Assembly (NCBI RefSeq): GCF_036971445.1
Contig: NC_091474.1
Location: 137,020,001 to 137,084,000, forward strand
From: Narcine bancroftii
Lineage: Eukaryota
Length of the DNA stretch: 64,000 bases
Direction of reading: 5' to 3'
Part shown: positions 9,249 through 51,029 of the stretch, in pieces
How the letters are laid out: the number at the start of each line of letters is the position of its first letter
Position numbering within the stretch: the stretch's first letter is position 1
Program-made: the position numbers and the translations under genes
Notes under the pieces: generated by a model
The model's database searches: none
Told to the model about the DNA's origin: nothing
The model's input: the letters and a program-made list of their open reading frames with translations, nothing else

Positions 9249-9612
9249 ATTTTTGAGTGCTCTTTTCCCATTATACAAGCAAGTTAGATGGAGTTAGAAG
9301 AGGATAGAAACTTTGGGGTGAGTAGTGCGACAGAAAGCACTCAAGACCAGAGAGAGTACAACACACTTTTATTCATTAAGAATGGCACACATGGTCTGTG
9401 GACTGAACTGGGGTTTCGTCAGGGGTGCAGGGTTTATATCGGGATGATATGGGGGTGGAGTCAGGGGAGGAGCCAGTTCTTGGAGTATCGCACCTGCAGT
9501 GAATTCCCAGTTCACTACATTCATCCCTTTTGAATGAAACCTGTGGGTGAAAACAGAGAACATCGGATAGTCAAAAAAAATTACAATATTGACAGGTTCA
9601 ACCTGTCAGGAG

Positions 9613-9787
9613 GTCTGGAAATGTGGGCAGAGAGCCACAGTGTTGGCTGGCCCTGGGCTTCCTGACCCTCCTGTGTTTACGGGGCCTTAGGGCACAGGTG
9701 ATCCAGCTCTGATTGAGGGGTGGCTGGAGCCACTTCTTGCGTCAGCTCACCTGTGTCCCTGAATAGGTCTGAGTCCTGGCCCCCTTG
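9613..9787. repeat. 175-bp direct duplication of element A sequence (copy 1; copy 2 at 12797-12971) flanking element B
   Basis: The two copies align without gaps, about 14 substitutions counted by eye. Confidence 0.9.
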
Positions 9788-9790
9788 GAA

Positions 9791-12700
9791 TGTGATAGTA
9801 CAGATTCTATCACCAATGTGTATATGTACATATGTACAGATGGTAGTGTAGGATGACTGCGATTGGCTGAGAGTGTAGCCACACCTACTGGCAGGTCTTA
9901 AAAGGAATGCTCCTCGCCAGACCAGGTCATTCTGGACTGGTCGACCTACTTGTGATATGCTCCAGTCTTTTAGTTAATAAAAGTCTTGGTTTGGATCAAC
10001 AAGTCTCTTGTTCTTTCGATGCGCATTCCCTTCAAAAAGAAATTTTGAAGGGATGGAGCATATGCTACGGCTGGAATGCCTCGACATCGACCCACAGTCA
10101 GCTATAGCCTCAAATGACTTTAAGCACTGGGTGAGGTGCTTCAAAACATACTTACAGCTCTCTGATCCTGCCGTGATAGAGGACAGCCATCAACTACTAA
10201 TATTGATGATTATGGTGTCCCCGAGAGTCTAGCAGAATGCCCAGGATGCGACTACTTACGCCGCAGCCATGAAGGTGCTGAAAGGGCTCTATGAGCGACC
10301 AATGAACAGGGTCTATGCTCGGTACACACTCGCTACAAGGAGGCAACAGCCCAGTGAGTCCTGTAAAGCTTATATTCAGACAGTAAGGGCAATGGACAGG
10401 GACTGTGCCTGCACAGACAGAACTGCTGCGGAGACCACAGACGATCTCATTCGGGATGCCTACATGGCCGGGGTTCGATCGAATGAGGTGAGGCAGCGCC
10501 TGTTAGAGCACGGGGGAGAAAACCTAGAGGATGTGATCCAGATTGCAGAGACGATGGAGGCTGCGGTCTTAAGTATGGACATGTACTCTCGGGGCTGGAC
10601 CCCACACTCTGATGTGAGTAGGATCCCTCCCTCTACCCAACTACTGTTGCTACGCTGCCCGATGCAACCCCAAAGTGTTATTTCTGCGGGAGGAACAAGC
10701 ACAGCAGGTCCCAGTGCCCGGCGAGAAAAACTAGGTGCCAGAAGTGCCTTAAAAACTGGTATTGCTGCAGTCTGTCATTTCAAAATGGCCGCCGTCAAAC
10801 ACAGTGCCTCATGTGAAGCCAAATCGCCACTCTCCATTTCAAACACTTCTTCCTCAGAGCTCTCATCCAATGAGAGTGAGGACTCCACCACACGGCAGCG
10901 CCTGACGTCACGGGGCAGACGCCAAGGGCGCAAGGTACAACCCACCCTCGCCGCAATGACATTCACCCTAATGTCCGACCAGGCCCCAGCCCCGACCTCA
11001 ACTTCCGCCGCTGCTGCCACCCACCAGGGACCCGTCAATGCCGACCAGAGACCCGCCGCTGCTGACCAGGGACCCACAGCCGCCGCCGACCAGGGACCCA
11101 CCGCCACCGCCACTGACCAGGGACATGTCGCTGCCAACTGGGGAACTGCCACTGCCGACCGGGGACCTGCCACTGCCTCCAGGGTCCTGAGAGCCGAAAC
11201 TCCTCTGTCGAGAAGGAGGCCCAGGCCATAGTCGAGGCAGTACGTCGTTGGAGACGCTACCTCACTGGCAGGCGCTTTATGCTGCTGACTGACCAACGTG
11301 CTGTCAACTTCATGTTTAGCAATTCCCAGCGAGATAAGATCAAGAATGACAAAATCGCCAGGTGGAGAATCGAGCTCTCCACCTTGAATTATGACATACG
11401 ATATCGGCCAGGTCAACTCAATAATCAGCCAGATGCACTCTCCAGGGGGACTTGCGCCACATGCAACTGGACAGGTTACAGAAACTCCATGAGGAGCTCT
11501 GTCATCCAGGGGTCACTAGGTTCGCGCACTTTGTCAAATCTCGCAACCTGCCCTACACGGTTGAGGAGATTCGCTTAATGACCCGGGCCTGCCCAGTGTG
11601 CGCTGAGTGCAAGCCCCACTTCTTCCATCCGGAGAACACCCATGTCATCAAAGCCACCGGCCCCTTTGAGCATCTCAGCGTAGACTTCAAGGGGCCCTTA
11701 CTGTCGACCAACTGTAACACCTACATCCTTATGGCCATCGACAAGTACTCCTGCTTCCCTTTCGCTGTGCCTTGCTCGGTCATTACTTCCTCCTCAGTCA
11801 TAGAGGCCCTGCACAGCATCTTCGCCATCTTCGGGTACCCCAGTTACATTCACAGTGACAGGGGGTCCTCGTTTATGAGCGCGGAGCTGCGGCAGTACCT
11901 TCTGGAGCATGGTATTGCTTCAAGTAGGACCACCAGCTATAAACCATGTGGTAATGGGCAAGTCGAAAGAGACAATGCCACCATCTGGAAAGCAGTTACG
12001 CTTGCCTCCGGTCCAAAGGTCTCCCCACCTCTTGCTGGCAGGATGTGCTCACTAGTGCCCTACACTCCATCCGCTCCATCCTATGCACCGCGACCAATGC
12101 CACCCCCATTGAAAGGATGTTCTCTTTCCCGAGGAAATCTGAGTCAGGTACGACCATACTGGCATGGCTCACGGTTCCCGTTCCAGTCCTTTTACGACGT
12201 CACGTCCGGTACTCTAAGAATGACCCCTTGGTTGATTGAGTGACTCTGCTCCATGCGAACCCGCATTATGCCTACGTTGAGTACCTAGACGGACGGGAGG
12301 ACACAGTCTCAGTAAGGGACCTAGCCCAAGCTGGATCAGATGCAGCAGTGCCTTTAACCCCACCTCCCCCTATTCCTTCTCTCCCAGGTTATGTGCTTGA
12401 ACAGAGGGACCAGCAACACCCTATCAGCTCAGGCCAGACTGTCGACAACGGCATTGGGAATTGAGCGAAGCAGTGGCCGCACCCTACAGGCCTGCCAGCG
12501 ACACAACTCCGGCGACCCCAATCCCGGCGCCAGATGGTCAGACCCCCTGACCGGTACAGCCCCTAACCTCCATTCACACTGGGGTCGGTTCTCAAAGAAG
12601 GGGTGAATGTGATAGTACAGATTCTATCACCAATATGTACAGATGGTAGTGTAGGATGACTGTGATTGGCTGAGAGTGTAGCCACACCTACTGGCAGGTC

Positions 12701-12796
12701 TTAAAGGATTGCTCCTAGCCAGACCAGGTCATTCTGGACTGGTCGACCTACTTGGTTTGGATCAACAAGTCTTTGGTTCTTTTGACGTGCATTACA
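9791..12796 (+). mobile_element. Gypsy element B, internally deleted (gag + RNase H end + integrase; no protease or RT), nested antisense in A
   Basis: LTRs 9791-about 10027 and 12608-12796 (TG...CA); PPT aaagaaggggtgaa 12594-12607; gag MEHMLRLECLDIDP from 10053 joined at about 11200 to EKEAQAIVEAV; integrase HPGVTR...CPVC, VDFKGP, HSDRG, GNGQVER. Confidence 0.9.
11020..11180 (+). repeat. Degenerate 24-27 bp tandem repeat in the gag C-terminal region (ADQGPxAA)
   Basis: About six units of gccgaccagggacccaccgcc-like sequence, visible in ORF 10269-11231. Confidence 0.75.
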
Positions 12797-15700
12797 GTCT
12801 GAAAATGTGGGCAGAGAGCCACAGTGTCGGCTGGCCCTGGGCTGCCTGACCCTCCTGTGTTTATGAGGCCTTGGGGCATGGGTGATCCAGCTCTGATTGA
12901 GGGGTGGCTGGAGCCACTTCCTGCGACAGCTCACCTGAGTCCCTGAGTAGGTTGGAGTCCTGGCCCCCTTGAGGTGGTGGACTCTCAGTTCCATCGGGTG
13001 CCAGGTCCCTAAACGAGACAGTGTCCTCCCTGCCATCTAGGTATGCCTCAAATGTGTAAATGAGGATGGCATGGAGTAGGTGTACCTTCTCGACCAAGGG
13101 GTCGGATTTGCTCCTCTTTACGTGCTTTCGGAGCAGCACTGATCCTGGTGCTGTAAGCCAAGCTGGGAGGGTTGTCTCTGACATTGACTTTCTAAAGAAA
13201 ACATCAGCTTGTGAGGAGTCACATTAGTTGCAGTGCAAAGTAGTAACCTAATGGAGTTGTGCGCCATGGGTAGGACATCCTGCCAGTGTGAGACTGGAAG
13301 TCCTTTGGACTGGAGGGCTTTTACGGCCTTCCAAACCATAGCATTCTCCTTCTCAACCTGTCCGTTCCCCCGGGGGTTATAGCGAGTCGTCCTACTGGAT
13401 GCAATGCCTTTCACCAGCAGAAACTGGTGCAGCTCTTTGCTCATAAATGATTTGCTCCAGTCGCTATGGATATAACCAGAATACCCAAACAGGGCGAAAA
13501 TAGTCTAGGGCCCTAGTGACGGATGGCGTGGATGTGTCTGGGCAGGGAATAGCGAACAGGAAACAACAGTACTCATCAATGACAGTGAGAATGTACATAT
13601 TCCCATTTGAAGAGGGGAGGGGTTCCACTGAGCCAAAGGGCTTGGATGCCTTTATCAGGTGTGTCTTTTTGGGACAGTAGAAGTGTGGCTTGCACTCTGC
13701 ACAGACCTGGCATGACCTGTCATTTCCCTGACATCCTCAATTGAGTAGGGTAAATTGCGTGCCTTGACAAAATGAGCCATGTGAGTGATGCCTGGATGGT
13801 GGAGTTCATTGTACAGTGACCGCAACAGGACGACATGTGCAGAGGCACAGCTTCCTCTGGACAGGGCATCTGGAGGCTCATTGAGAGTACCAGGTTGGTA
13901 GACTATGTTGTTGTAGGTGGAAAGTTCGATCCTCCACCTAGCAATTTTGTCATTTTTAATTTTGCCTCATTTTATGTTGTTGAACATTAAAGCCACCGAT
14001 CGCTGGTCCGTGAGGAGGGTGAATTTCCTAACCACCTGGTAGTGCTTCCAGTGCCTGATAGCCTCTACAATGGCTTGTGCCTCTTACTGCACTGATAGCT
14101 TCCGAAGCTCTTGGAAAAAAATGCAACCTGCCTACCGACCTGATTAAGGGTTGCAGCCAGAGCTACGTCTGAAGCATTGCTTTCCACCTGGAAAGGTACA
14201 TTTTCGTCCACCCCATGCATGGTGGCCTTTACAATGTGTCTTCTGACACAGTTGAAAGCTGTTTGAGCTTCGGCTGTCAATGGAAAATAAGTGATTTTTA
14301 AGAGGGAACGGAACTTGACCTCATATTGAAGGACCCATTGGGCGTAATATAAAATAAAGTCCAGGCACCTCGGGATCAGGAGTTCCAACAGGGGATGCAA
14401 CCTGTTGGGGTCAGGGCCCAATGATGCCATTCTCCACCACGTAGCCCAAGATGGCTAGACATCTAGTCCCGAATACACATTTACTGGTGTTGTAAGTGAG
14501 GTTCCCGGCTTTAGCTGACTGGTGAAAGTTCTGGAGGTTGGCGTCATGGTCCTCCAGAGTGTGGCCACAAATGGTAACATTGTTGAAGTATGGGAAGGTG
14601 GCCTTCAACTTAAATTCGTCTAACATTCGGTGCATCTGTCTCTGAAAGATTGAGACTCCATTCACGATACCAAATGGAACCCTCCGGAACTGACAGAGTC
14701 TCCCGTTAGCCTCAGAAGTGGTGTTGGGATGGTTCTCAGAATGAATTGGCAACTGGTGGTAAGCAGCTTTAAGGTTGATGGTTGAATAGACCTTGTACTG
14801 CACAATTTCATTCACTATGTCTGAAATGTGAGGGAGGGGATATGTGTCCAGAAGTGTGAAGCGATTAATAGTTTGGCTATAGTCAATTACTAACCTAGAC
14901 TTTTCTTCCCCTTTTACAACAACCACCTGTGCTCTCCATAGGCTGGTACTGTGCTCGATAATGATCTCATCAAGCAGTCGTTATGTCTCAGCCTTGATGA
15001 ATGCCCGGTCCTCTGCACTGTAGCACCTGCTTTTTGTAGCAATTGGTCTTCAATAGATGCTCAGATTGGGGAACAGAGGAGGTGGATCTATATTCAGTGT
15101 TGTCAGACAGCAAATGACATCAGAATTTTGAGACCTTCTGTTCCAATCCATAATGGGAGGAAGAGGACCAGAATACTTCAGGGCCACTTTGTTAAAGTGA
15201 CAAGGAGTCAAGACCCAGCAAAACTAAAGCACATAAATTCTTAAGTACATACAGTTTGAACTTACAGAAGTCCCCCTCCTGTAAAGATAAATGAACCATA
15301 CAATGTTCTTGAATATTTAGACTGCATATGATATGCTAAATAAATACTCTAATTAGTGGGATACACTTTGAGATTGAGATTTTGAACTGTCTCTGTGTCT
15401 ATGAAGCTCTCAATTGAGCCAGAGTCAATTAAGCATTTCAATTTATGCCTGTTTACCCACACCTTTGTTGTGGAATTGTTCAGTTGGTATGGTATCTCAT
15501 GGTTCAACACTATCGCTGCCAAGATTCCGGAGATGCCATCATTCCCCTCATTGGAGTCACTCTCCCCGTTCGGATCCTCATGCAGGCAAGATGGTGGGGG
15601 CCACAAGTTTCAGCAAGATAGCAGCCCTCCTCCTCCTCCTTCCACCCATTGTAAATGGTGCAGAATTTGAATGCAAGCAAGATGGTGGTGACCACGTGGT

Positions 15701-18249
15701 GCAGTAAGATGGCTGCGCTCCCTCCTCATTGGATGAAGGTGGTGCCAGTTTCAAAATGTGGCAGGATGGCTTCCAAGTTTTCCAGCTTTGCTTCTCTCGC
15801 TGCGTGGCCCTGCAGCAAGGCCATGGTGTACAACACTAGCACTGGGAGGCCGGGGGTTTGGGTTTTGGGCTCGCCTCAGTTGGCCCATTAGGGGTCGCTC
15901 ACACTTTGAACCTCTCAGCACTTCCCCTCACCCTGTAGACTTTCACCCAATACCCCTTTCCACAACCGGAGCAGTTGGAGTCTTTAGCAGGACATCGAGT
16001 TCTTGGGTGCTGTTGCCGACCGCAGAAGAAGCATTCCTTAGTGCCCAAGGCTGCCATCGTTAAAGCCGATGCAACATGTGGCACCATTCTGGGACTTAGG
16101 TCCTCATGAAGGGTGCTGCTGCCTTCTAAATTGTCAGCCCCAAGTTGGGCCATCTCTAGTGACTTGGCCAGTAGTACATTCTCAGGAAGTGCCGCGCTGC
16201 CTTTCTCCAGCAACTGTTGCTGAATGTATTTGGACCACTCTCCAGTGACCAGAGCATCCTGGATCTGCTCATCCTCCTGTTCTCTGTCCATGCTGTCCTC
16301 ATATCTGCAGTTCCTCACAAGTGCCCGTAGGCTGAGGACATAGTCCTCCAATGGACTTAACTGGCCGCTGCTTCCATTGTGAGAGTTGATGCCGCGCTAA
16401 GACAATGTTTTGGGGCCTCGTGTAGTGGGCCTTCAGCTTCTCAACAGCCACTGCATAAGTCGTACAGTCCCTGATGATCGGGAATCCTTTAGGTCCAACC
16501 CAAGAGAGGAGCGCTGACCTCTTGAGCTCATCCATTGAGTAGACCTCTTACGTGGCTGTCAGGTACATTTGGAAGCACCCCAGCCAATATGTGAACTCTT
16601 CCAGGGCCTCCAGGGACAGAAGTTCGATGAGGAGCATTGCAGACTTTAACAGTGCTTCCATCCCATTCTTTATTGAACAAAATTGTTGCGTGACAGAGCG
16701 CACTCAAGACCAAAGAGAGTACAACACGCTTTTATTCAATAAGAATGGCACACATAGTCTGTGAACTGAACTGGGGTTTTGGAGAGGTCCAGGGTTTAAA
16801 TCAGGATATGCCGGGGTGGGGGGGGGGGGGGCGGGGGGGGGGGCGGGTAGAGTCTGGGGAGGAGCCAGTCCTTAGAGCATCGCACGAGTAGTGAATTCCC
16901 AGTTCACTACAGGGTGGTATTGGAAGGCAGGATAGACTTAATATTTTAAGGAACCAAAATATAAGAGAAATGGTAAAACACCTGCAGTGAACAGTAGAGT
17001 AGCTACAAAGTCTTGAATGGCCACTTCCTGCTTCTACTTATAAGTAAGGTTGTGTGGCTTGTAAAGCAGGGGTCACGTTTGTTCTTTGCTGGGCCCTCAT
17101 TTCTGTGAGGGGGCTGGACAAAATGGTGACAAAGTTAAAGAATTTCATGGATGTTACATTCTAAATGTAGTATTACATGACAATAATGGAACCTTTACCT
17201 TGACCTTTAGTGTTAGTCATTTGAGTTCTCAGGGATCATCTTATGGTTTTGGAAATTCATCCTAAATTTCTGAGGATTTCATAGTCATAAGCATCAAGCC
17301 ACGCAAAACAGGCATTTTGGCCCTCACATCCATGCTAACCACCTTTAGCAATTCAGTGCATGTCAGTGATGTAACGGGATTGGGTGAGGAATAGAAGAAT
17401 TATTAGGAGGTGAATGAGCCTGAAGGAGAATAGGGGAAGCATCTGAAGATAGTTTCCGGAACTAGTTGTGTTTTGTTACCTGCTTGGGAAGGTTACATGT
17501 AACTTGTGGAAGGTCTTTCATCTACGGTGAAAAAATGTCTATGCATGCATTTTGTGGTAATTCACAGATGTAATATCCAGCCAAAAATCTATTTGTTGGA
17601 GGAAATCAGCGGGTCAAGCAGCATCAATGGGAGAAAAATGGATGATGTTTCATATTGAAACCTTCATCAAGACAAGACTGCTGAAGACCACTATACATAT
17701 CCAAGTATGAGTGCTTTAGATCCAAGGAAAATCAAAGGATAATTAGACTGAGGTCCAGACCATGATTCCCTGGCTTTTAATGGCTTTTTTTTTCATAGAA
17801 ATTCTATTGCAGTGTGCACTGAACTGTATGATTGGATTTCCCAGACAGTGTATATTGTTTAGCTGACACTGTCTCAAGTTTCTTCTGCTGTTAGCTTTTT
17901 CTTCTGTTTGGGTAAATTACCTTCAACCTCACTAAACATTTAATCAATATATTTTCATCCAATATCTAAGCAAATTGTTATTTTGACCAGATTGTATTCT
18001 TTTTAATAGATGGTTTATGATAAGTTGTTCTACAGATGTATATAACTCTTTAAGACTTTTTTTCTTCCTGTTCTGGAACTGTGTTTTAAACTGAACTGTG
18101 AAATTGTAAATATTCCATTATTAAAATAAAATGGTATTCTTCATTTTCACTACCACCGAGGAATTCAATCCAAACACTAGGATCTGGTTGTCAGAATCAA
18201 ATGAGTCTTATCCCATTTTCTTGACTAAGTTGAATCATTTGTTTTTATT

Positions 18250-18606: not shown

Positions 18607-20013
18607 TTCTTCTCTTTGGCTTGGCTTCGCGGACGAAGATTTATGGAGGGGTAAATGTCCACGTCAGCTGCAGGCTTGTTTGTGGCAGACAAGTCCGATG
18701 CGGGACAGGCAGGCACGGTTGCAGCGGTTGCAGGGGAAAATTGGTTGGATGGGGTTGGGTGTTGGGTTTTTCCTCCTTTGTCTTTTGTCAGTGAGGTGGG
18801 CTCTGTGGTCTTCTTCAAAGGAGGTTGCTACCCACCGAACTGTGAGGCACCAAGATGAACGGTTTGAGGCGATATCAGCCCACTGGCAGTGGTTAATGTG
18901 GCAGGCACCAAGAGATTTCTTTAGGCAGTCCTTGTACCTCTTCTTTGGTGCACCTCTGTCACAGTGGCCAGTGGAGAGCTTGCCATATAACACAATCTTG
19001 GGAAAGCGATGGTCCTCCATTCTGGAGACGTGACCTACCCAGCGCAGTTGGATCTTCAGCAGCGTGGATTTGATGCTGTCGGCCTCTACCATCTCGAGTA
19101 CTTCGATGTTAGGGATGAAGTCGCTCCAATGAATGTTGAGGATGGAGCAGAGACAACACTGGTGGAAGCGTTCTAGGAGCCGTAGGTGATGCCAGTAGAG
19201 GACCCATAATTCGGAGCCGAACAGGAGTGTGGGTATGACAACAGCTCTGTATATGCTAATCTTTGTGAGGTTTTTCAGTTGGTTGTTTTTCCAGACTCTT
19301 TTGTGTAGTCTTCTAAAGGCGCTATTTGCCCAGGGGAGTCTGTTGTCTATCTCGTTGTTGATCCTTGCATCTGATGAAATGGTGCAGCCGAGATAGGTAA
19401 ACTGGTTGACCGTTTTGAGTTTTGTGTGCCCAATGGAGATGTGGGGGGGCTGGTAGTCATGGTGGGGAGCTGGCTGATGGAGGACCTCAGTTTTCTTCAG
19501 GCTGACTTTCAGGCCAAACATTTTGGCAGTTTCCGCAAAACAGGACGTCAAGCGCTGAAGAGCTGGCTCTGAATGGGCAACTAAAGCAGCATCGTCTGCA
19601 AAGAGTAGTTCACGGAAAGTTGCTCTTGTGTCTTGGTGTGAGCTTGCAGGCGCCTCAGATTGAAGAGACTGCCATCCATGCGGTACCGGATGTAAACAGC
19701 GTCTTCATTGTTGAGTTCTTTCATGGCCTGGTTCAGCATCATGCTGAAGAAGATTGAAAAGAGGGTTGGTGCGAGAACGCAGCCTTGCTTCACGTCATTG
19801 TTAATGGAGAAGGGTTCAGAGAGCTCATTGCTGTATCTGACCCGACCTTGTTGGTTTTCGTGCAGTTGGATAACCATGTTGAGGAACTTTGGGGGGCGTC
19901 CGAGGCGCTCTAGTATTTGCCAAAGCCCTTTCCTGCTCAAGGTGTTAAAAGCTTTGGTGAGGTCAACAAAGATGATGTAGATTCCTTTGTTTTGTTCTCT
20001 GCACTTTTCTTGG
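18607..20013 (-). mobile_element. RTE-clade LINE, 5'-truncated
   Basis: QEKCREQN, FVDLTKAF, VKQGCVLAP (19581-20030) and a 295-aa C-terminal ORF (18664-19551); tail agccaagccaaagagaaga; no clear TSD. Confidence 0.92.
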
Positions 20014-20039: not shown

Positions 20040-21410
20040 GGAAGAACCTCTGTTAAGTGTCAGGCCCAGATGATGTATTTGGCTGCATGAACTAATTGAC
20101 TGGAGTTTTTGTAGATATTTTCAACCTTCTGATGTTGTTTAATAAAGCAAATCAACTCCTGCCTCAGGAAGGTCTTCAATTCACCTAGTACCACAATAGA
20201 TCAATAGCAAATGCCATCTTGCTGATCCTCCACTGTGCATCAGACCACTTTCTCCACAGGAACACCTACGTCAGGCTAATGTTCATTGACTATAGCTCAA
20301 GTGTTCAACACCATCATAATAGTAAAACTTTGTAATTAAGCTCAGGGATTTGAGACTCTATTCCTCCCTTTGCAACTGCATCTTGAATTCCTATTGAAAG
20401 GCACCAATCTGTATGGATTGGCATCATCACCTCCTCCATGTTAACAATCAACACAGGCACCTCATGGGTATGTGCTTAGTCCCCTGCTCTTTTCCCTGTG
20501 TACCCTTTGATTGCGTTGCCGTTTTGTTCCAATGCAAGCTATAAATTCACTGATGACATCACCTTTGTCGGCTAAATAACTTGAAATGATGTTAGAATAC
20601 AGGAGTTGGCCAGAAAACAACAATCTTGCTCTCAATCTCAACAAAATCAAGGATCTTATTTTTTATTTTAGGACTGAAATGATCACACACCTGCCTATAT
20701 TGATAAGACAGGGGTGGAGAGGGTTAGTACTTTCAAGTTCCTGGGAGACCATATTTCAGAAGACCTCTTCTGGAGCCAACATATCAAAGCAACCATAGAG
20801 CCTTAACTTTATAAAAAGTTTGAGGAGATTTTCCATGCTGTTGAATACACTACCAAACTTCTTCAGGTTCACAATGAAAGTATACTGACTGGTTGTGTCA
20901 CAGCTTGGTTTAATAATACAAGTGCCCATGAATTCAGAAAGCTGCAGAAAATACCAAACATGGCAAGGCCTATCACAGACTCAAACCTTCCATCTACTGA
21001 ATAAATCATTGTGAGGCTCAGGAAGGCAGCCAACATTTAAAGGACTCGCATTGCCCTAGTCACAACTTTTTCTCACTGCTACCTTCAGGTAGATCGTACA
21101 GAAGCCTAAAGATGAGCACTTCTTTCCAACAGCTGACATGCTCTTGAACCTCCCCTTGTTAGACAAATCATGAACTACTCTGACACAACAAAAATGATTG
21201 TCTGCTCCAATGTAATGCCAGTTTTCTTTTTTGTATTATGGTAATAGATATAATTTATTTGTTTATCTTTTGTATTATCTCTTTTTAATTTAATATACAC
21301 TACTATAGTTATTTTTTCTTTATGAAATACAGTACCTGCTCGGCTGAAGCAAGTAAGAATTTAGATACGTATGTACAGTTTACAACGTATATGACAATAA
21401 CCACCAACAT
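20040..21410 (+). mobile_element. Rex1/Babar-like LINE fragment (old)
   Basis: Degenerate RT motifs: gactatagctcaagtgttcaacacc (DYSSxFNT), GAPQGCVLSP-like, KFTDDIT, NNLALNLNKIK. Confidence 0.7.
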
Positions 21411-21474
21411 TATCAAGTTCAAGTTATCTGATTGTAGACAAAACAATATTTTTCTAGATCACTGTGCATATACA

Positions 21475-24400
21475 TGTGGTGGTACACCACCAGCCTACTG
21501 CAGGGGGCGACCTCTGTACCTGCAGAAGAACACGGGAGGACAGGGCAACACCTGGCTGGCTGTCAATCAGCAAATCTGAATGGACAAGCTCCAACTGGTT
21601 GGCTGTCAATCACCCTCTGGGCTATAAGCTGCGTCCGGCCATTTCAGAGTCAGTTTCAGAGCTTGCACCAGTAGTCTCACAGCTAGTTCGGTGAAGGTTT
21701 AAGTTGAATAAAGCCTGTAGAACAGACTTTATGTTTTGTGTGTTTGCTTCTGTTCGATAGCACACCACAATTTATTCAATTTAAAATTTAACGTTGTGAT
21801 GGAGAAGTTCCTCAGTGCCGGGAGCCTCAAAATCGACCCACGCCACCTGGAAGCACAAGCACGCTTTGAGATCTGGAAGCACACGGTTGAAACGATCATA
21901 GAGGCTCACACCGATGACATCCTAGACTCCGACCGGAAAAGGCTCATTTTACTCCGATTGAACCTGGGCCCCCGGACCTTCCAGGCTCTCAAACATTGCA
22001 CCGGGTACTCAGATGCGAGGAACACCATCGAGATCAATGTACAAACCTCCCACGAATGTGGTTTTTGCAAGGTATCTCCTAAATATCCATGCCCAGCTGC
22101 CCGTGGAGACGACTGAGTCCTACCTGGGAGTCCTGCGTGAGTTTGCCCAACCTTGTCTGGCTGAACCCAGGGTAAATGAAAGGGAGGTCGCGAGACTGAT
22201 CAAGGATGCCTACAACTGGGAGCTACGTGCGAAAGCAGTCAGGCAGAAGCTGCTAGAGGACGATATCTACTCCCTAGCCAAAACAGTGGAAGTAGTCTGA
22301 ACCCTGGAGGCAGCAGCCCTGCACACCAAAGCCTTCGACTCCAGCTTCCCCAGGCCTCCACATGGTCAGCACACTCGGCTGCTGTGGCCCTAGACCAGAT
22401 TGGGGACAAAAACATCGCTGCTGCAGGCACCCAGCGCTCTTGTAAGTACTGTGGGTCCCAGTGTGGGTATGATCGTCAATCACGCCAAAACTGCGTGACC
22501 AGAAACCAGTAGTGTTCGAGATGTGGCAAGAAAGGCCACTTAACTAAAGTATGCCTCTCAAAGCCTGCCGGGAGCTCAGCGGCCCTCTACGACCTGCTCC
22601 CCTCCCGCGAATCCCCGCCACATGTGATTGCCAGGCGACGCCATTGCCCTCGCAGGTACTTCCAGCCTCTCCAGCTTCCGTGGCCCAACTTCTGGCCTCG
22701 CCATCAATGATCGCTGCGTGCACGCCATACATTCGGACCAGCTTTTGCTGAGCACGAAGTCTACAGTGACGTCACTTCCGGTTCACGGAATGATGTCACT
22801 TCCGCCACACGTCAACCTCGCCGACGGCGTGACGTCACTTACCCTGGCACAAACAACACAGCTGGGGAAAAGGTCAGCCTTACCCTGTACTCCCATGTGG
22901 CGCCGACATCTTAGGCTGGTCAATCCCAGGCACCACCGCCACCTGGGACCTCCCAGGCCTACAACAAAGTTGGTATTGATGATGATGACGACATGGTCAA
23001 CATGAGTGCTGACCAGGCCACCCTACTGATACACCCCAGACTTCTGCACACCGCAGATCCCTGCCCACCGCACCACATGCTTATGGAGAGCACCACCGGT
23101 CAACACTCACCTCTCATGATGCCTGCTGAGGATGCCACCGGCCACGACTCCCCTCCACCAACAGGGAACGATGACTCAGATGCTGAGATAGTCCTAGCAG
23201 CCACTACCCTGACCAGGGACATCCCCCATGGCCTCGGGTGCTCCATGATGGACATTAAAATCAATGGACAGGTAACAAAGTGCCTAATCGACAGTGGCAG
23301 CACTGAGAGTTTCATTCACTGAAGCTAAAAATCCACCCCACCACCTTCTCTATCGCCTTCGCCACCCAGGACTGCACTATCAATACCTCAGGTGCTGCTC
23401 GGCCGATCTGACTGTGGGGTGGGGGTAGACATACACCGGGTTTAGGCTCCTGGTCATGCCCAAACTCTGCGCCCCAGTCCTCCTGGGTTTAGACTTCCAA
23501 TGCCACCTGCAGAGCAGCACCCTTGCCTTCGGGGGGCCCCTAACCCCACTCACGCTCCACAGCGTGCCGTCCAACCAGCCCCGGCCAACCTGCAGCCTCT
23601 CCACGCTGCGCATCACCTCTTCCCCGTGCTCTTCTCACACCTCACACCAGACTGCAAGCCAATAGCCGCCAGAAGTAGGCGCTATTGCACCGCAGACAGA
23701 GACTTCATCAAGGCAGAGGTGCAGCGGCTTCTGGCGGAAGGTGTCATAGAGCCCAGTAACAGCCCATGGAGAGCCCAAGTCCTGGTGATCAAAGGGGGCA
23801 GCAAGCCAAGAATGGTCATGGATTACAGCCAGACCATCAACCGGTACACCCAGCTGGATGCCTACCCCTTACCAAGGATAGCCAACATGGTCAACGAGAT
23901 AACCCACTACCAGGTCTTCTCCATAAATGACATGAAGTCAGCCTATCACCAACTCCCCATCCACCCACGGGACAAGCCTAATACAGCCTTCGAGGCAGAT
24001 GGGTGCCTGTACCAGTTACACCGAGTTCCGTTTGGGGTCACAAATGGGGTCTCCATCTTCTAGCGGGAGATGGATCGTATGGTAGACTGGCACAAACTGA
24101 AGGCAACTTTCCCATACCTGGATAATGTCACCAACGGCAGCCACGACCAGCGGGACAATGATGAAAACCTGGAGAAATTTACCGGAAAGCTGAGGAGCTG
24201 AACCTTACTTTGGACAAAGGGAAGTCCATGTTCAGCACCACCCGCCTTGCCATCCTGGGGTGCATCATGGCACATGGTGTAATCGGCCCAGATCCAGGAC
24301 AGATGCGCCCATTAATGGAGCTGCCCCTCACCCCATGCTCAAAGCCCTCTGCAGGTGCCTTGGCTTATTATCCTACTATTCACAGTGGGTTCCCCGCTTC

Positions 24401-26431
24401 TTGGACAAGGTCTGCCCACTGGCCCAAGCCACAACTTTTCCTCTCCCACCCGAGGCGCAGACAGCCTTCACACGCATCAGGCAGGATACTGCAGATGCCA
24501 CAATGCATGCTGTGGACAAGGACTCCTCCTTTCAGGTGGAGAGTGATGTCTCCGATGTAGCCTTTGCCGCTACCTTCAACCAAGGGGGGCACCCAGTCAC
24601 CTTCTTCTCCAGGACCTTCCAAAGTTCCAAGCAAGGGCACTCAGCATTGAAAAGGAGGCCCAGGCGATTGTGGAACTAGTCCGTCATTGGCGCCACTACC
24701 TGGCCGGCAAGTGGTTCACCCTCCTCACTGACCAGCAGGCTGTGGCGTTCATGTTCAACACCACTCACAGGGGCAAGATCTAGAATGACAAGGTCTTGCG
24801 CTGGAGAGTCGAGCTGGCAAGATACAACTACAATATCCAGTATCGCCCAGGGAAGTTTAATGACTCCCCTGACGCCCTCTCCCGTACCTGCGCGTCACTC
24901 CATGACGACCAACTGCATGCACTGCACAAGTCCCTATGCCACCCAGGCGTCACCCGCTTATACCACTTCATCAAGTCCCGGAACCTCCTGTACACTGTCA
25001 GGGACATCAGGACCATGACTGAGGCGTGCTGGGTCTGTGCGGAAAAAACCTCATTTCTTCCACCTGGCCAGGCTCATGTCGTAAATGCCACACAGGCCTT
25101 CAAGCACCTCAGCATGGACTTCAAGGAGCTCCTGCCTTCCACAAATCAGAGCGTCTATTTCCTCATGGTCATAGACAAGTACTCCCACTTCCCTTTCACC
25201 ATCCCTTGCCCAGACACCTCCACGGCCACTGTCATCAGGGCATTGACACAGATCTTCACCATGTTTGGCTACTCTGCATTTATCCACAGCAACCGGGGGG
25301 ATCTAGCTTCATGAGTGAGGAACTACGCCAGCACCTGACAGCAAGGGGCATCGCAACTAGTTGCACGATTAGTTAAAACCCGAGAGGTAATGGACAAGTG
25401 GAGCATGAGAATGGGGTAGTTTGGAAGGCAGTCCTCCTGGCCCTTAAGTCAAAGGGGTGGTTCATAGAGTACTGGCAGGACACCCTCCCCAATGAGACCC
25501 CTCACGAACGCCTGTTTTCGTTCCTTAGAAATCAGCAATGGGAACATCTCTCACAGCATGGCTTGCATCTCCGGGACCAGTGCTCCTGTGTAGACATGTG
25601 CAGACACACAAGGCCAAACCCCTGGTCGAGCAGGTATTCCTCCTACATGCGAATCACAACTACGTCTATGTTAGATTCAGCAGTGGCAGGTAGGTCACCG
25701 TCTCATCCAGGGACCTGGCACCAGCTGGAGCACCCACCACAGTACAGCATCCTCCATTCCAGGACCATACCGGCCTGACATGCTTCCCTGACCCCGTACA
25801 GCTGTGGGGCACTCAAGACCCCCCTGGGCACCGACTCACTCCAACCATGGGGGATGAACCTGCCTCCCCACCCATCCAATGCATCGCACTCGACTCAGCC
25901 CCGGCCCCCCCGGCCACCCCTCTGCGCTGCACCTTGCCAGCCATTCCGGCCCCCACTTCCAGCCCCTGCTTACCCTCGCCGACCTGTGACCAGGAGCCAA
26001 CCCTGCAACGGTCACCAGAGACTCCGATGGCCACCAGACTGTCTAAATTTGTAATAATGTATATATATGTGGGGCTCTGTTAGATCATGGACTGCAAACC
26101 TCCCCCTCCCCCCCCCGGGACAATTTTAAAGGGGGTGAATGTGGTGGTACACCACCAGCCTACTGCAGGGTGTGACCTCTGTACCTGCAGAAGAACATGG
26201 GAGGACAGGGCAACACCTGGCCGGCTGTCAATCAGCCGACCTGAATGGACAAGCTCCACCCGGTTGGCTGTCAATCACCCTGCAGGATATAAGCTGGGTC
26301 CAGCTCTTTCGGAGTCAGCCAGTATTGCACCAGTATTCTCACAGCTAGTTCGGTGAAGGTTTAAGTTGAATAAATCCTGTAAAACAGATTTTATGTTTTG
26401 TGTGTTTGCTTCTGTTCAATAGCGCAACACA
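21475..26431 (+). mobile_element. Gypsy element C, full-length, decayed
   Basis: LTRs 21475-21769 and 26140-26431; TSD ataca/atata; PPT aaagggggtgaa; gag MEKFLSAGSLKIDP from 21799, CCHC-like knuckle, LIDSGS protease, RT DYSQTINRYTQLDAYPLP / YLDNV, RNase H VESDVSD, integrase HPGVTR. Confidence 0.93.
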
Positions 26432-26439
26432 ATATATAC

Positions 26440-27085
26440 ATACACTATACACAGCTCGTAATAATCCATAATAATCACATATATAATAAAGATATAACAT
26501 AAAATAAATGCATATAAATATTTTTCAATTTTTACTCTGTTATAGGGTACCATACCAGTCTGCGGGAAGAAGCCATTTCCCAGCTTGGCTGTCCTGATTT
26601 TGATGATCCTGTATCTCCATCCTGATGGTTTTAGGTCAAAGATACTATGTGATGGATGAAAAGGGGCCTCAAAAATTCTTTGAACATTATTTAAGCAATG
26701 TTTAAGGTGAATGTCGTCAGCAGAGGAAAGGGAGACCCCAGTGATTTTCTCAGCTGTTGAAGATCCTCTGTATTGATGGCTGACCTGATGCTTTGCAGCT
26801 ACAATACCACACAATGATGCAGCCAGACAGTATACTCTCATTTGTGCTCCTGTAAAATTTTGTTGAGCTGAGAACCTTGCCCTCCTCAGCCTCCTTTGGA
26901 AGTGTGGGTGCTGCTGGGTCTTTCTGACTAATGAGGAAGTATTGTGGGTCCAGGGTAGGTTGTCCATTATATGCACACCAAAGGAACTCTCTCCACAACA
27001 GAGTCATTGATGGTGGATGGTACAGTGTGATCGACTGTCATCTTCCTGATATTCACAATCATCTCCTTTATCTTATCCATGTTGA
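26440..27085 (-). mobile_element. Rex1/Babar-like LINE 3' part (element C sits in its tail)
   Basis: ORF 26416-26976: KTQQHPHFQRRLRR...AEKITG...HPSHSIF...SGWRYR...NGFFPQ. Confidence 0.7.
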
Positions 27086-36730: not shown

Positions 36731-37090
36731 ACAGTGGACCCAGCACTGATCTCTACAGCACATCACTCGTCACAGGGCTTCAATTTGAATAACACCAACC
36801 CCTTTAAGAATTCATTATGTGCAACATGGTGATAGATTGTCCTGGAAAATATGTGACCAGGAAAGAAAGTCATATCTTTAACTTATATTTATACATTTAT
36901 GCACATACATACATGCACACATCTTTAAATTTATTTGCACTGGCAACTTTACTTATAGCTGCTGAGGCCCTAGCTCTGGAATTCTCCATCCACTCTCCTC
37001 TGTGGAGTCCTATGGTCATGGTACCATGTTAAGGCCATCACATCATGTTTTTGTGGACATCTCTGTGCTAATTTGTTATCTGCTATAGGC

Positions 37091-38345
37091 ACGAAAACCA
37101 ACAAGGTCGGGTCAGATACAGCAATGAGCTCTCTGAACCCTTCTCCATTAACAATGGCGTGAAGCAAGGCTGTGTTCTCGCACCAACCCTCTTTTCAATC
37201 TTCTTCAGCATGATGCTGAACCAAGCCATGAAAGACCCCAACAATGAAGACGCTGTTTACATCCGGTACCGCACGGATGGCAGTCTCTTCAATCTGAGGC
37301 GCCTGCAAGCTCACACCAAGACACAAGAGAAACTTGTCCGTGAACTACTCTTTGCAGATGATGCCGCTTTAGTTGCCCATTCAGAGCCAGCTCTTCAGCG
37401 CTTGACGTCCTGCTTTGCGGAAACTGCCAAAATGTTTGGCCTGGAAGTCAGCCTGAAGAAAACTGAGGTCCTCCATCAGCCAGCTCCCCACCATGACTAC
37501 CAGCCCCCCCACATCTCCATCGGGCACACAAAACTCAAAACGGTCAACCAGTTTACCTATCTCGGCTGCACCATTTCATCAGATGCAAGGATCGACAATG
37601 AGATAGACAACAGACTCGCCAAGGCAAATAGCGCCTTTGGAAGACTACACAAAAGAGTCTGGAAAAACAACCAACTGAAAAACCTCACAAAGATAAGCGT
37701 ATACAGAGCCGTTGTCATACCCACACTCCTGTTCGGCTCCGAATCATGGGTCCTCTACCGGCACCACCTACGGCTCCTAGAACGCTTCCACCAGCGTTGT
37801 CTCCGCTCCATCCTCAACATCCATTGGAGCGCTCACACCCCTAACGTCGAGGTACTCGAGATGGCAGAGGTCGACAGCATCGAGTCCACGCTGCTGAAGA
37901 TCCAGCTGCGCTGGATGGGTCACGTCTCCAGAATGGAGGACCATCGCCTTCCCAAGATCGTATTATATGGCGAGCTCTCCACTGGCCACCGTGACAGAGG
38001 TGCACCAAAGAAAAGGTACAAGGACTGCCTAAAGAAATCTCTTGGTGCCTGCCACATTGACCACCGCCAGTGGGCTGATAACGCCTCAAACCGTGCATCT
38101 TGGCGCCTCACAGTTTGGCGGGCAGCAGCCTCCTTTGAAGAAGACCGCAGAGCCCACCTCACTGACAAAAGGCAAAGGAGGAAAAACCCAACACCCAACC
38201 CCAACCAACCAATTTTCCCTTGCAACCGCTGCAATCGTGTCTGCCTGTCCCGCATCGGACTGGTCAGCCACAAACGAGCCTGCAGCTGACGTGGACTTTT
38301 TACCCCCTCCATAAATCTTCGTCCGCGAAGCCAAGCCAAAGAAAG
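37091..38345 (+). mobile_element. Young RTE-clade LINE, 5'-truncated, with intact reading frame
   Basis: Perfect 6-bp TSD ataggc (37085-37090, 38346-38351); tail agccaagccaaagaaag. Confidence 0.95.
37159..38289 (+). CDS. RTE reverse transcriptase C-terminal part (376 aa open, N-terminally truncated, probably not expressed)
   Basis: KQGCVLAP, LLFADD catalytic motif, FTYLG, LRWMGHVSRM, C-terminal CNRCNRVC...SHKRAC. Confidence 0.85.
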   Translation: MKQGCVLAPTLFSIFFSMMLNQAMKDPNNEDAVYIRYRTDGSLFNLRRLQAHTKTQEKLVRELLFADDAALVAHSEPALQRLTSCFAETAKMFGLEVSLKKTEVLHQPAPHHDYQPPHISIGHTKLKTVNQFTYLGCTISSDARIDNEIDNRLAKANSAFGRLHKRVWKNNQLKNLTKISVYRAVVIPTLLFGSESWVLYRHHLRLLERFHQRCLRSILNIHWSAHTPNVEVLEMAEVDSIESTLLKIQLRWMGHVSRMEDHRLPKIVLYGELSTGHRDRGAPKKRYKDCLKKSLGACHIDHRQWADNASNRASWRLTVWRAAASFEEDRRAHLTDKRQRRKNPTPNPNQPIFPCNRCNRVCLSRIGLVSHKRACS

Positions 38346-39269
38346 ATAGGCCAAGAGAATTAATAAAGAACATTAAACCATCATTCCTCCCTCTTCTTTT
38401 CTTGTTTGATTTCCTCCAGCTGTCTGTCACTACCATTGGACATCCCTTCTTGCTACCCCATGGGAGGTGTTCAAATTTCAAAGCCAGAAGAAAACCTGTT
38501 CATCTGGGCTTCCAGCTCTTCCTTCTGATCTTTGCACCTGAGGATAACTCCAGAAAGATGCGCTCTAGTGCTCTTGTGCAAGAGCAGATAAAGAAAGAGA
38601 ATCATGTGGATGGGACAAAGGAGTTTACATTTAACTGGAGAGGCTATCATTTATATCTCCCCACCATCATCGGGGAACAAATTTCTACAAGTCAAGGATT
38701 TTTTATTCCGATATAATTTAAGGTCCTCGGTATGTGCAGTAAATTTTTACCAATATGAAACTATTAAATGTAACCTAAGGGACCAATCAAGGCCAGAGTG
38801 CCTTAACATTGGCTAAAATTATTAGCTGAAGGGAAGACAAACTTTAATAATCAGGACATAAGCAAAGAACATGTATTCTTACAGTGTCTGAGAAGAAGGG
38901 ACATTTTATTTTCTGCCTTTATCAAAAATAATAACATCAGCATGTGCTGCATCTTGGACAATTGAATTCCCAACACAGTTAAAACATTTATTTCAATTTT
39001 TTCATGACAATTCATCGCTTCACAGGCTGTGGCCATTCATTTAACAACTATCATGTGGATGGGACAAAGGAATTTACATTTAACAAGATTTGTGTTCACT
39101 TGGAAAGCCAGGGACTAGTTAGAAGGAGTCAGCATGGATTTGTGCAGGGGAAATTATGTCTCACAATCTGACTGAATTTTTGCAGGCAAAATCTTTCTCA
39201 AGCAGTACATAAATAGCCCTTTTCAATGAGCTAGTGAACACACATCTACATTGAGCACACCTGCATCCA

Positions 39270-46217: not shown

Positions 46218-48561
46218 TGTGGTGGTACACTACTGGCCTACTGCAGGGGGAAACTTCTGTACCTGCAGAAGAGCATGGGGATAAGACAACACCTGGCCGG
46301 CTGTCAATCAGCTGACCTGAATAGACCAAGCCCCACCCGGTCGGGTGTCAATCACTCTCTGGGATATAAGCCTGAGCCAGCCCTTCGAAGACACTCTCGG
46401 AGTTTACAGCAGCTCTCCTCACAGCTGGATCTGTGGAAGTTCACGTTGGATGAAGTCTGTTGTACAGACTTTAGGTTTTGTGTGTTTGCTTCTATCCAAT
46501 AGTGCACCACAATTTATTCAACATAAATTCTTAAAGCTGCTATGGAAAAGCTCCTGAGCGCTGGGAGCCTCAAAATTGACCCACGCCACCCGGAAGCACA
46601 AACACGCTTTGAGATCTGGAAGCACACAGTCGAAGCGATCATCGAGGCACATGTCGATGATATCCTGGACTCCGATCGAAAGAGGCTCATCTTACTCCGA
46701 TCAAAGCTGGGTCCCCAAGCCTTCCAGGCACTCAAAGACTGCACCGGGTACTCAGAAGTGATGAACACCCTCAAGACCATGTATAAACTTCCCATGAATG
46801 TGGTCTTTGCAAGGTATGTCTTGAGTATCTGTGCCCAGCTGCCCGGAGAGATGGTCGAGTCCTACCTGGGAGCCCTGCATGAGTTGAACCGACCTTGTCT
46901 GGCTGAACCTGGGGTAAATGAAAGGGAGGTTAAGAGGCTGATCAGAGATGCCTATGTCCGAGGGCTACACGCGAGAGCAGTCAGGCAGAAGCTGCTGGAG
47001 GACAATATCTACTCCCTGGCCAAAGCAGTGGAGGTAGTCCGAACCCTGGAGGCAGCTGCCTTGCACACTGAAGTCTTCGAATCCAGGCTTCCTCAGGCCT
47101 CCACATGGTCAGCACATTCGACTGCTGTGGCCCTAGATCAGGCTGGGGATGAAAACATCGCTGCTGTGGGTGCCCAGCACCCTTGTAAGTACTGTGGGTC
47201 CCAGCGTGGGTCTGATCGTCGATCGTGCCAAAACTGCCCGGCCAAAAACCAGTACTGTTCGAGATGTGGCAAGAAAGGCCTCTTCACCAAAGTATGCCTC
47301 TCAAAGCCTGCCGGCAGCTCAGTGGTCCTCTACAACCTCCTCCCTCCCTCACGATCCCCGCCACATGTGATTGCCGGGCAATGCCATTGCCCCCACAGCC
47401 ACTTCCAGCCTCCCCAACCCCAGCGGCCCAACTGTTGGCCTCACCGGCAATGATCGCTGCATGCATGACATGTTCCCGACCTGGCCTTCGCTCTCACCAG
47501 CGCCGCCTCCAGAAGACTACAACGACACCACTTCCGGTCTATGGAATGATGTCACTTCCACCAGCCTTGATGACGTCGCCCTCACCGACAGCCAGCGGCA
47601 TGATGGCACTTCCCTCAGCGCACTTAGCACAGCCGGGGAAGAAGGCCAGCCATGCCTTGATGCCATCGTGGGCCGGACAGGCGTGGGCGCCGCAGACACC
47701 GAGGCCCTCCCAGGCCTCCAACGATAACAACATGGTCAACACAGGCACTGACTAGGCCGCCCTACCGACACACCCTATGCATCTGGATGCCACTAACCAC
47801 CGCACACTGTACCTGACAACTACGGAGAGCACCACCAGTCAACACTCACCTCTCATGATCCCTGCAGAGGATACCAACAACCACAACTCACCTCCACCTT
47901 CGGGGAACAACAACTCAGACCCCAAGATGGTCCTAGCAGTCACCACCCTGATCAGGAACATTCCCCGTGATCTCTGGCGCTCCATGATGGACATAAAAAT
48001 CAATAGGCAGGTAACAAAGTGCCTAATCGACAGTGGCAGCACCAAGAGTTTCATTCATCCAAGCACAGCCCACTCCCTAAAGTTAAAAATCCATCCCACC
48101 ACCTTCTCTATCGCCTCTGCCACCAAGGACCGGACTATCAATACCCTCGGGCGCTGCTTGGCCGATCTGACTGTAGAGGGGGGGGGAGATACATACACTG
48201 GGTTCAGGCTCCTGGTCATCCCCAAACTCTGCGCCTCAGGTCTCCTGGGTTTAGACTTCCAATGTCACCTGCAGAGCATCACCCTCGTCTTCGGGGGGCC
48301 CCTGCCTCCACTCACACTCCAAAACGCGCCGTCCAACCAGCCCTGGCCAACCTGCGGCCTCTCTGACCTGAATAGACCAAGCCCCACCCGATCGGGTGTC
48401 AATCATCCTCCGGGATATAAGTTGAGCCGGCCCTTCGAAGACACTCTCAGAGTTTATAGCAGCTCTTCTCACAGCTGGCTCTGTGGAAGTTCATGTCGAA
48501 TAAAGCCTGTTGTACAGACTTTAGGTTTTGTATGTTTGCTTCTGTCTGATAACCCACCACA
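46218..48561 (+). mobile_element. Gypsy element D (related to C), gag plus protease only, deleted into the 3' LTR
   Basis: Perfect TSD gagat (46213-46217, 48562-48566); 5' LTR 46218-46511; gag ORF 46542-47453 with CKYC / CSRCGKKG; LIDSGS; jumps into LTR sequence at about 48363. Confidence 0.92.
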
Positions 48562-50798: not shown

Positions 50799-51029
50799 GG
50801 CGAGAAATTCGCTTAGATTCATATCGTGTTCCTCCATGTCATGGCCGCATATGGTGACGTTATTACAAATACCTGAGTATTACTGATACATTACTTGGCC
50901 AGATTCCAGGTTCAGGAGCAAGAGGGGGAAAGTTCAGGCACGCCAGCCTTTATTGGGAAATCCGGGGAGGAGCCAAGGGAGGAGTTAGGGAAGGTCAGGG
51001 AGGTTCGGACTGACCAGTCCCTACATCTA

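Follow-up and report, generated by a model that had tools for sequence, protein, structure and literature searches.

A leader arm complementary to its own long terminal repeat suggests self-priming in an animal lineage of Ty3/gypsy retrotransposons

The 3′ end of a long terminal repeat (LTR) marks the start of minus-strand synthesis, and the sequence adjoining the 5′ LTR is therefore the primer-binding site. In C1, an element which we recognise from its sequence as a broken Ty3/gypsy LTR retrotransposon of a widespread animal lineage without a chromodomain, this site is complementary to a segment of the element's own LTR ending in AATAAA. C1 lies in a stretch of 64,000 nucleotides of the Narcine bancroftii genome (NC_091474.1, positions 137,020,001 to 137,084,000 of the forward strand), referred to here as the window; all coordinates are those of the window. 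The pairing, first pointed out in an earlier note on this DNA, raises the question of what primes the element. We consider it quite probable, from the sequences, that the leader arm of the duplex is the primer-binding site and that the R segment of the element's own RNA is the primer, which would make this a tRNA-independent lineage of Ty3/gypsy elements. The parts concerned are as follows.

21475..21769, plus strand: 5′ LTR of C1, TGTGGTGG...CACCACA, 295 nt (limits from 89% identity to the 3′ LTR and from loose contig ends)
21698..21712, plus strand: core of the LTR arm, the proposed self-primer; its 3′ end is the last A of AATAAA, and a 22-nt version reaches 21691
21707..21712, plus strand: AATAAA poly(A) hexamer, read from the sequence, entirely within the duplex
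21713..21727, plus strand: small hairpin GCCTGT-aga-ACAGAC directly 3′ of the arm, 5 of 6 pairs, with a C-A mismatch at pair 2
21770, plus strand: 1-nt spacer A between the terminal CA of the LTR and the leader arm
21771..21785, plus strand: core of the leader arm at the primer-binding-site position; it begins TTT, not TGG, and a 22-nt version ends at 21792

The end of the LTR was fixed independently of the pairing. The two LTRs of C1 align over 305 nt (89% identity), and assembled contigs of the public run X1 part from the window exactly at 21475 (455 contigs) and 21769 (115 contigs). Such contigs, through which copies of the window elements were studied, cannot show transcript starts or ends. 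Since the end at 21769 is fixed in this way, exactly one spacer base precedes the leader arm, as had been noted, and the gag ATG stands at 21799, again in agreement. Recounting the pairing of 21691-21712 (GTGAAGGTTTAAGTTGAATAAA) with 21771-21792 (TTTATTCAATTTAAAATTTAAC) returned the same 18 Watson-Crick and 2 G-U pairs, with 2 mismatches, out of 22. The pairing is thus confirmed while its extent is not: the outer seven pairs hold both mismatches and one G-U, and the letters at 21694, 21696 and 21792 vary among copies of the same species, so that the working duplex is about 15 bp and not 22. This core (21698-21712 with 21771-21785) consists of 14 Watson-Crick pairs and one G-U, and at the G-U (21780) 1050 of a contig depth of 1266 in X1 read another letter, which pairs Watson-Crick.

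Shuffled controls, specified beforehand, fail to reach this complementarity (0 of 1000 LTR shuffles, 0 of 1000 arm shuffles). The best ungapped 22-nt match has 18 Watson-Crick pairs, whereas shuffled LTRs (n = 1000) average 11.3 and reach 16 at most, and with the hexamer held fixed the remaining 16 positions still give 12 pairs against 5.2 expected (2 of 10000 shuffles). The duplex energy, −17.8 kcal/mol, was reached by 2 of 500 and 0 of 500 shuffles in two controls, and negative controls taken from the sequence behind the 3′ LTR stay at background. Two further leaders in the window are informative.

16662..16911, minus strand: family B, 5′ LTR (16911-16684) and 22-nt leader
46218..46541, plus strand: C2, a sister copy of C1, 5′ LTR (46218-46511, arm decayed) and leader

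All three leaders pair with their own LTR at −16.9 to −20.4 kcal/mol (0 to 4 of 500 shuffles). Almost the whole leader of family B lies in a 19-bp duplex with its own LTR arm, which ends in AATAAAA (−20.4 kcal/mol; 0 of 500 shuffles in both controls). The earlier note had claimed the same duplex for a family A whose LTR could not be aligned to that of C1; this A is presumably the minus-strand element at 16911-9322, the sole other family in the window with an intact leader. Both parts of that claim hold, since at E ≤ 1e-8 the C LTRs have no alignment with those of the other window families and C1 and the minus-strand family pair with themselves at −17.8 and −20.4 kcal/mol but with each other at only −9.0 and −11.0. 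In C2, the 3′ LTR fragment (48363-48561) retains the arm. Pair 11 is A-T in C1 and T-A in C2, a difference on both sides of the duplex, and the cross-pairs of the two copies are uneven (C2 leader with C1 LTR −18.2, C1 leader with C2 3′ LTR −8.9 kcal/mol). In a fourth, plus-strand family, with an LTR from 9791, a small inverted duplication has destroyed the junction: at 10028-10052 a small perfect inverted repeat, CCCTTCAAAA...TTTTGAAGGG, stands just before the ATG in place of the LTR-leader junction, probably as the result of a template-switch accident.

Is the duplex a property of the lineage? The Gag frame of C2 is still open, has two Cys-His knuckles and finds 1577 relatives at E ≤ 0.001. 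Metagenome contigs were scanned with a Gag alignment, which is blind to the leader; 184 stretches were confirmed and the best 80 of the 184 were used. Seventy-eight of these loci cluster into 43 families, L067 and L075 having been dropped because their Gag start lies off the contig. Six of the 80 loci have less than 110 nt upstream and were left out of the unanchored search and of the count of perfect runs, for which 74 loci remain. Where the match began inside Gag (L055, L059, L063 and L070, for example) the Gag start is misplaced, which alters the leader lengths of these loci.

The unanchored search for the longest perfect stem finds, locus after locus, a 3′ arm that starts one base after the terminal CA (CA+1). 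Anchored at CA+1, 30 of the 43 families reach 12 or more of 14 pairs (29 do so by first member), and each of the 30 beats all 100 of its shuffles; the anchored search itself demanded this spacing and the unanchored search gives the same register. Conservation of the duplex beyond the window is therefore borne out. The LTR end was set by a second LTR in L006, L010, L034, L039 and L042 and in two more families where the 3′ LTR reaches the contig end; elsewhere it was read from the motif and is thus partly circular. Together with two families from the window the 30 relatives form a set of 32, whose median Gag identity of 42% means that they are not recent copies of one another.

Within this set, own arms pair at 11.81 of 12 positions and swapped arms at 7.23 of 12 (14 of 992 swaps reach 11); the positions outside the hexamer give 5.84 of 6 for own arms and 2.81 of 6 for swapped ones. 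Two to four pair types occur at 11 of the 12 positions. The information in this test lies in the low score of the swapped arms and in the variety of pairs. Perfect runs measure 9 to 18 bp, fall to background level from position 17 and do not exceed 18 among the 74 loci; in that separate count, positions 1 to 12 hold 356 Watson-Crick pairs, one G-U and three mismatches. The ensemble pairing probability is at least 0.8 in all 32 families, and local folds give 0.8-1.0.

The junction is constant in a few details and variable in the rest. All 32 families have a 1-nt spacer (A in 29, G in 2, T in 1), which in no case pairs with the base that follows the arm; every family also has A-T as its innermost pair and A as the last base of its LTR arm. 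Leaders range from 16 to 54 nt, with a median of 29; the linker between the arm and the end of the LTR measures 57 nt in C1 and 23-72 nt in relatives. The AATAAA that the earlier note took as an element of the duplex is one in most families but not an invariant: a canonical AATAAA or ATTAAA overlaps the arm end in 23 of 32, and nine arms with neither pair fully, ending TTTAAA, GTTAAA, AGTAAA, TGTAAA, GATAAAA, TCAAAA, GATAGA or TGAAGA, with the terminal A and the register kept in all. In seven of these nine families no other canonical signal occurs in the last 150 nt, and some of the non-canonical ends may be weak variants of the poly(A) signal. Two sister families, L017 and L053, have arms ending TGAAGA and GATAGA, leaders that match with TCT, and no canonical signal within 150 nt.

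GCC or ACC directly follows the arm in 28 of the 32 families. In an anchored test, 20 of the 32 have a 4-bp RCCU/AGGY hairpin whose first base is the one next to the arm, where 7.8 ± 2.3 would be expected (0 of 1000). Its first pair occurs as G-U, A-U or G-C and its fourth as U-A, A-U or G-C. The small hairpin of C1 is a candidate counterpart. AGGT was also considered as a splice donor and rejected by eye, as it is followed by varying bases and its place as a pairing partner is also taken by AGGC, TGGT or CGGT.

The polarity of the duplex places the terminal A of the arm exactly where the 3′-OH of a primer must lie. The site varies in step with the LTR of each family, so that no host tRNA could follow it. 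No TGG is found within 5 nt after CA in any of the 32 families, and of 74 upstream windows 3 contain CA-N(0-3)-TGGY, in each case away from any recognised LTR end (no half-tRNA test against a tRNA library was made). The window holds no tRNA genes.

Where the transcript starts determines which piece of R would act. The candidate signals of C1 are these.

21623..21628, plus strand: TATA-like TATAAG, function predicted from the sequence
21650..21655, plus strand: initiator (Inr)-like TCAGTT, 29 nt after the start of the TATA-like motif, by motif only
21728..21746, plus strand: U/GU-rich tract, 16-34 nt after AATAAA, which resembles a polyadenylation downstream element

TATAAG is found in all four C-family LTRs of the window, and the arm, placed by the earlier note about 65-85 nt past ctataag, was measured at 63-84 nt after the end of that motif. 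Pairs of TATA-like and Inr-like motifs spaced 27-33 nt occur in seven of nine window LTRs, from three families (the patterns TTTAAA, CTTAAA and ACACTC were added to the scan after the sequences had been seen). The +1 that they predict precedes the end of the arm by about 60 nt in C, 40 nt in B and 50 nt in A/D; in C1 it falls at 21652, 60 nt before the arm's 3′ end. It is plausible, judged from TATA and Inr motifs only, that the arm is not cap-proximal in the window families. A GT-rich tract after AATAAA is general in animal Metaviridae LTRs (PMC3601003).

We therefore picture the following course, in which every step is a proposal. The duplex would form soon after the transcript is made. Cleavage would follow directly 3′ of the terminal A, where the neighbouring hairpin begins; the probable enzyme is the element's own reverse transcriptase (RT)/RNase H, as in Tf1. 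This would be an internal cut 40-60 nt from the cap, unlike that of Tf1. A search of Rfam over 21400-21900 gave 0 matches at E ≤ 1, with no ribozyme family indicated. RT would extend the freed end across U5 up to the cut. As the strong-stop DNA would cover only the linker, the 3′ end of the RNA must extend beyond the arm, and strand transfer would use the 15-30 nt left beyond the cut at the RNA 3′ end by the same hexamer; an overlap set by the hexamer would explain why the primer end and the poly(A) signal coincide. Plus-strand copying of the primer would rewrite the binding site, and a primer copied into its own site would account for the near-pure Watson-Crick match and for the limit of 18 nt. 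The spacer base and one retained primer A would leave a 2-nt end matching AA on the polypurine side; HIV-1 with its tRNA leaves a comparable 2-nt end. Concealment of the 5′ poly(A) signal is likely a second function, or a by-product, of the duplex.

Taken as a whole, this fuller account (pan-animal gypsy elements other than chromoviruses, with an internal cut 40-60 nt from the cap, where duplex and hairpin meet at the last A of the poly(A) signal, and a primer that rewrites its site to about 18 nt) is tentative and has, in our judgement, somewhat less than an even chance of being correct. It would give the hexamer three jobs: 3′ end of the primer, a signal that leaves just enough repeat for strand transfer at the RNA 3′ end, and a signal silenced by the duplex at the 5′ end.

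A number of observations weigh against these proposals. Their basis is sequences and assembled contigs. The fold energy of the whole region 21645-21810 is ordinary (z = −0.61), as the signal is local. The 32 families were chosen by duplex score, so that the own-pair counts and the rarity of G-U are inflated by selection, and the two G-C pairs at position 2 occur in sister families and count as one event. An earlier generic test of stem length for the hairpin was not significant (136 against 126.7 ± 7.1, z about 1.3), and the C1 hairpin scores only 2 contiguous pairs in the lineage-wide stem test. The TATA-Inr pair was found in only one of 30 families outside the window. The Gag tree is poorly resolved (5 of 29 branches strongly supported) with the window rows as long branches, and independent changes were for this reason left uncounted. 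In Ty3 the binding site is not preserved by primer copying (PMC5371799); rewriting of the binding site is therefore not universal.

Thirteen of the 43 families also fall below the cut. Four of them (L037, L045, L063 and L074, the last seen through its 3′ LTR) have a shorter or decayed duplex in the same register, and nine are without a usable junction, including L028 and L055, in which the LTR arm and hairpin are present and the leader is deleted. In L028 (5901-6000, 9578-9800) the 5′ LTR is joined to the leader through a palindrome, AGCT, common to both arms, and the stem-loop is gone, while the 3′ LTR retains the arm and a perfect GCCT/AGGC hairpin; judged by its sequence, the junction looks like an excision between the two arms. 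In L045 (94-261) two tandem copies of the leader arm precede the start of gag, and an ACA+A junction stands before each. In L004 (141-1423) the LTR measures about 1.2-1.3 kb, five to eight times that of most relatives, with the same 16-nt leader.

Could the priming be exactly that of Tf1, with transcription starting at or just before the arm and a short, cap-proximal primer? This would be a special case of self-priming, and we think it unlikely, though less so than the explanations that follow. The lack of an upstream TATA-Inr pair in 29 of the 30 outside families is in its favour, as are duplex lengths close to those of Tf1-type primers and an Inr-like CTAGTT about 6 nt before the 22-nt arm of C1. 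This last motif is missing in C2, and the motif pairs in seven of nine window LTRs place the start 40-60 nt ahead of the arm's end.

Self-priming might also draw its arm from another copy of R, be it the element's own 3′ R, the R of a partner genome or a short LTR transcript, cut or trimmed to the duplex. Both LTRs contain the arm, as do hundreds of LTR copies, and full R homology would then remain for strand transfer. A poly(A) tail and 15-30 nt would need to be removed first, however, and the 5′ arm, which pairs with a probability of 0.8-1.0 in local folds, lies only 58 nt from its partner and should therefore win during transcription. We hold this route to be improbable.

We judge equally improbable that the duplex only hides the 5′ poly(A) signal, as proposed for the HIV-1 polyA hairpin, and that something else primes. 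Retroviruses with the signal in R need such masking (PMC12789967), the canonical hexamer lies within the stem in 23 of the 32 families, and the partner strand exists behind the 5′ LTR only. Masking is not enough by itself, since no site for a primer would be left (the arm fills that position and TGG is absent), and since it does not explain the nine hexamer-less arms that pair fully, seven of them with no other signal in the last 150 nt. Nor does masking need the fixed 1-nt register, the terminal A or the near-absence of G-U.

A helix serving translation, dimerisation or packaging near the gag start, with a host RNA or protein as primer, is less probable again. The stem does reach the AUG in many families, those with leaders of 16-23 nt, but it is the distance to the LTR end that is constant while that to the AUG varies (16-54 nt), and a fixed host RNA could not follow a site that changes in step with its own LTR. 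Chance complementarity of AT-rich sequence, or a one-off inversion in C1, has a negligible probability: the ordinary regional fold and the partly incidental outer seven positions speak for it, but against it stand the 0 of 1000 shuffles, the 30 families and own pairing far above swapped, by which we regard it as ruled out.

Self-priming remains the explanation that we prefer, and it is proposed for an element whose class can be read from its remaining parts.

21470..21474, plus strand: ATACA, probable 5-bp target site duplication, matching ATATA at 26432-26436 in 4 of 5 positions
21799..25723, plus strand: broken gag-pol with Gag, protease, RT, RNase H and integrase in gypsy order
26128..26139, plus strand: polypurine tract AAAGGGGGTG and 2-nt spacer AA before the 3′ LTR
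26140..26431, plus strand: 3′ LTR, whose copy of the arm (26359-26374) is identical to the 5′ arm

Two TG...CA LTRs, a polypurine tract, a target duplication and the gypsy domain order place C1 in Ty3/gypsy. Its gag-pol has many stops and frameshifts; Pfam recognises RVT_1, RT_RNaseH and rve, and further pieces were found by tblastn against a full-length relative. RT is nearest to Ty3 among solved structures, and a profile of the relatives also matches Ty3 best. No duplex is possible at the 3′ LTR, since no leader follows it. The AA|TG junction is seen in relatives as well as in C1, and exact 5-bp duplications were found at 9 of 11 related loci checked (three families; one after a 1-nt correction of coordinates). 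Pieces of RT and integrase from the window are 57-65% identical to the best loci, so the window elements belong to the same lineage as the relatives.

Full-length relatives consist of a single open reading frame of about 1150-1250 aa. No chromodomain was found in Pfam scans of three of them or in the precomputed domains of the RT relatives listed (120 of 1151); the C-terminus of the C1 integrase is too broken for such a scan. Named relatives come from rays, echinoderms and Hydra by Gag, and from a ctenophore, a nematode, molluscs and an insect by RT. A word-index search with Gag for longer proteins gave no match, scans of viral contigs gave no relatives, and the ESM Atlas returned generic Gag/CCHC clusters only. 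Cigr-1 or a Mag-related clade is no more than a guess at a name for the lineage.

Several side observations concern these elements. In the U3 of C1, the stretch 21485-21529 has ten times the contig depth of the rest of the LTR, with joints going back about 40 nt, and may be a tandem unit or be shared with a more abundant related LTR family. The active-site region of RT at 23446-24060, 14414-14980 and 50860-50880 reads YxDN/YxNN-like, not YxDD, in several copies, and relatives share this (YIDN in P0111, for instance). Diverged, older LINE-like pieces flank C1 at 20714-21110 and 26419-27003, the latter with an ALKBH8_N-like match. At 9322-16911 a plus-strand gypsy element (LTRs about 9791-10027 and 12608-12796) is nested in a minus-strand gypsy element of the same lineage. 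The target region around it is doubled (9613-9787 and 12797-12971, 92% over 175 nt), far above the normal length of a target duplication. Element E (46010-51029, minus strand) has a deletion from inside its 5′ LTR into RT; it contains the truncated C2 (46218-48561) and a solo A-family LTR (about 50559-50797, flanks GGTGA/GGCGA). A non-LTR-like repeat bearing RT occurs in three copies (4274-5243, 18608-19863 and 37089-38346; 94-97% identical).

If the lineage does prime itself, priming without tRNA would have had more than one origin or a greater age than assumed, which bears on whether hairpin priming preceded tRNA priming, a question raised in PMC3601003. The elements would also be out of reach of host tRNA-fragment silencing at the primer site, and annotation tools that demand a tRNA site will miss them. 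Under self-priming, the position equivalent to 21712 should be the 3′ end of an RNA, and the strong-stop DNA should measure 57 nt.

How does this compare with known systems? Self-priming has been demonstrated in Tf1, and predictions extend it to the Tf1/sushi group and to a few lineages of plants. In the passages available to us it is reported for Tf1/sushi, Tcn1 and TAR/Houba/Osr-1 only (PMC6934838, PMC3601003, PMC6317226, PMC6238403, PMC10085805, PMC2774666, PMC4600332; further sources of the same scope are PMC554778, PMC2582038, PMC12789967, PMC7175516, PMC5341516 and PMC5371799), and for the hairpins of fungal GalEa as a hypothesis. The same passages hold no report for the C1 lineage, though original element papers or Repbase, outside the search, may note the pairing. 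For the Mag and Cigr-1 clades the excerpts searched give no priming mode, Cigr-1 being mentioned without priming data; in the text available, literature citing Saci-2 is silent on self-priming and a network paper on LTR elements has no passage on the primer-binding site. The present analysis adds that the LTR arm is linked to the poly(A) hexamer, that its terminal A and its register do not vary, that a hairpin adjoins it and that pairing stops at 18 nt.

A single open reading frame of about 1150-1250 aa, two Cys-His knuckles in Gag, short LTRs and 5-bp duplications are shared with the Mag lineage and Cigr-1 clade of animal elements other than chromoviruses; Gag, too, may resemble that of Cigr-1 and Mag-type elements. 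Like HIV-1, the C1 lineage would enclose a poly(A) signal in a stem, but unlike in the HIV-1 polyA hairpin the partner lies outside the LTR, the stem forms at the 5′ end only and the primer site is occupied; HIV-1 itself primes with a tRNA.

Tcn1, a gypsy element, and the copia elements TAR/Houba/Osr-1 of plants are closer in the rule that they follow: at least 10 nt, 0-5 nt after the LTR, complementary to the LTR (PMC6317226). C1 conforms to it with a 15-bp core holding one G-U, most relatives with 12-18 Watson-Crick pairs. The lineages and hosts differ, and no link to a poly(A) signal is reported for those elements in the text at hand.

The closest parallel is Tf1. Tf1 and Tf2 of Schizosaccharomyces pombe, Tj1, Tosmo1-3, Tcry1 and the Tf1/sushi group likewise have no tRNA site and a binding site complementary to their own R (PMC10085805, PMC7175516 and PMC4600332), and they share with the C1 lineage the gypsy domain order and a helper helix beside the proposed cut. 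In Tf1 RNase H cuts after base 11 (PMC7175516) and flanking helper duplexes beside the primer are needed (PMC10085805). Of the three duplexes of this Tf1 "pretzel", one hairpin 3′ of the arm was found in the C1 lineage (20 of 32 families). The primer of Tf1 is its first 11 bases, whereas the arm of the C1 lineage is predicted to lie 40-60 nt inside the transcript and usually ends in the poly(A) hexamer. Unlike the Tf1/sushi chromoviruses, the full-length relatives examined have no chromodomain, for which reason the lineage is provisionally not filed in that group, and its hosts are animals of many phyla.

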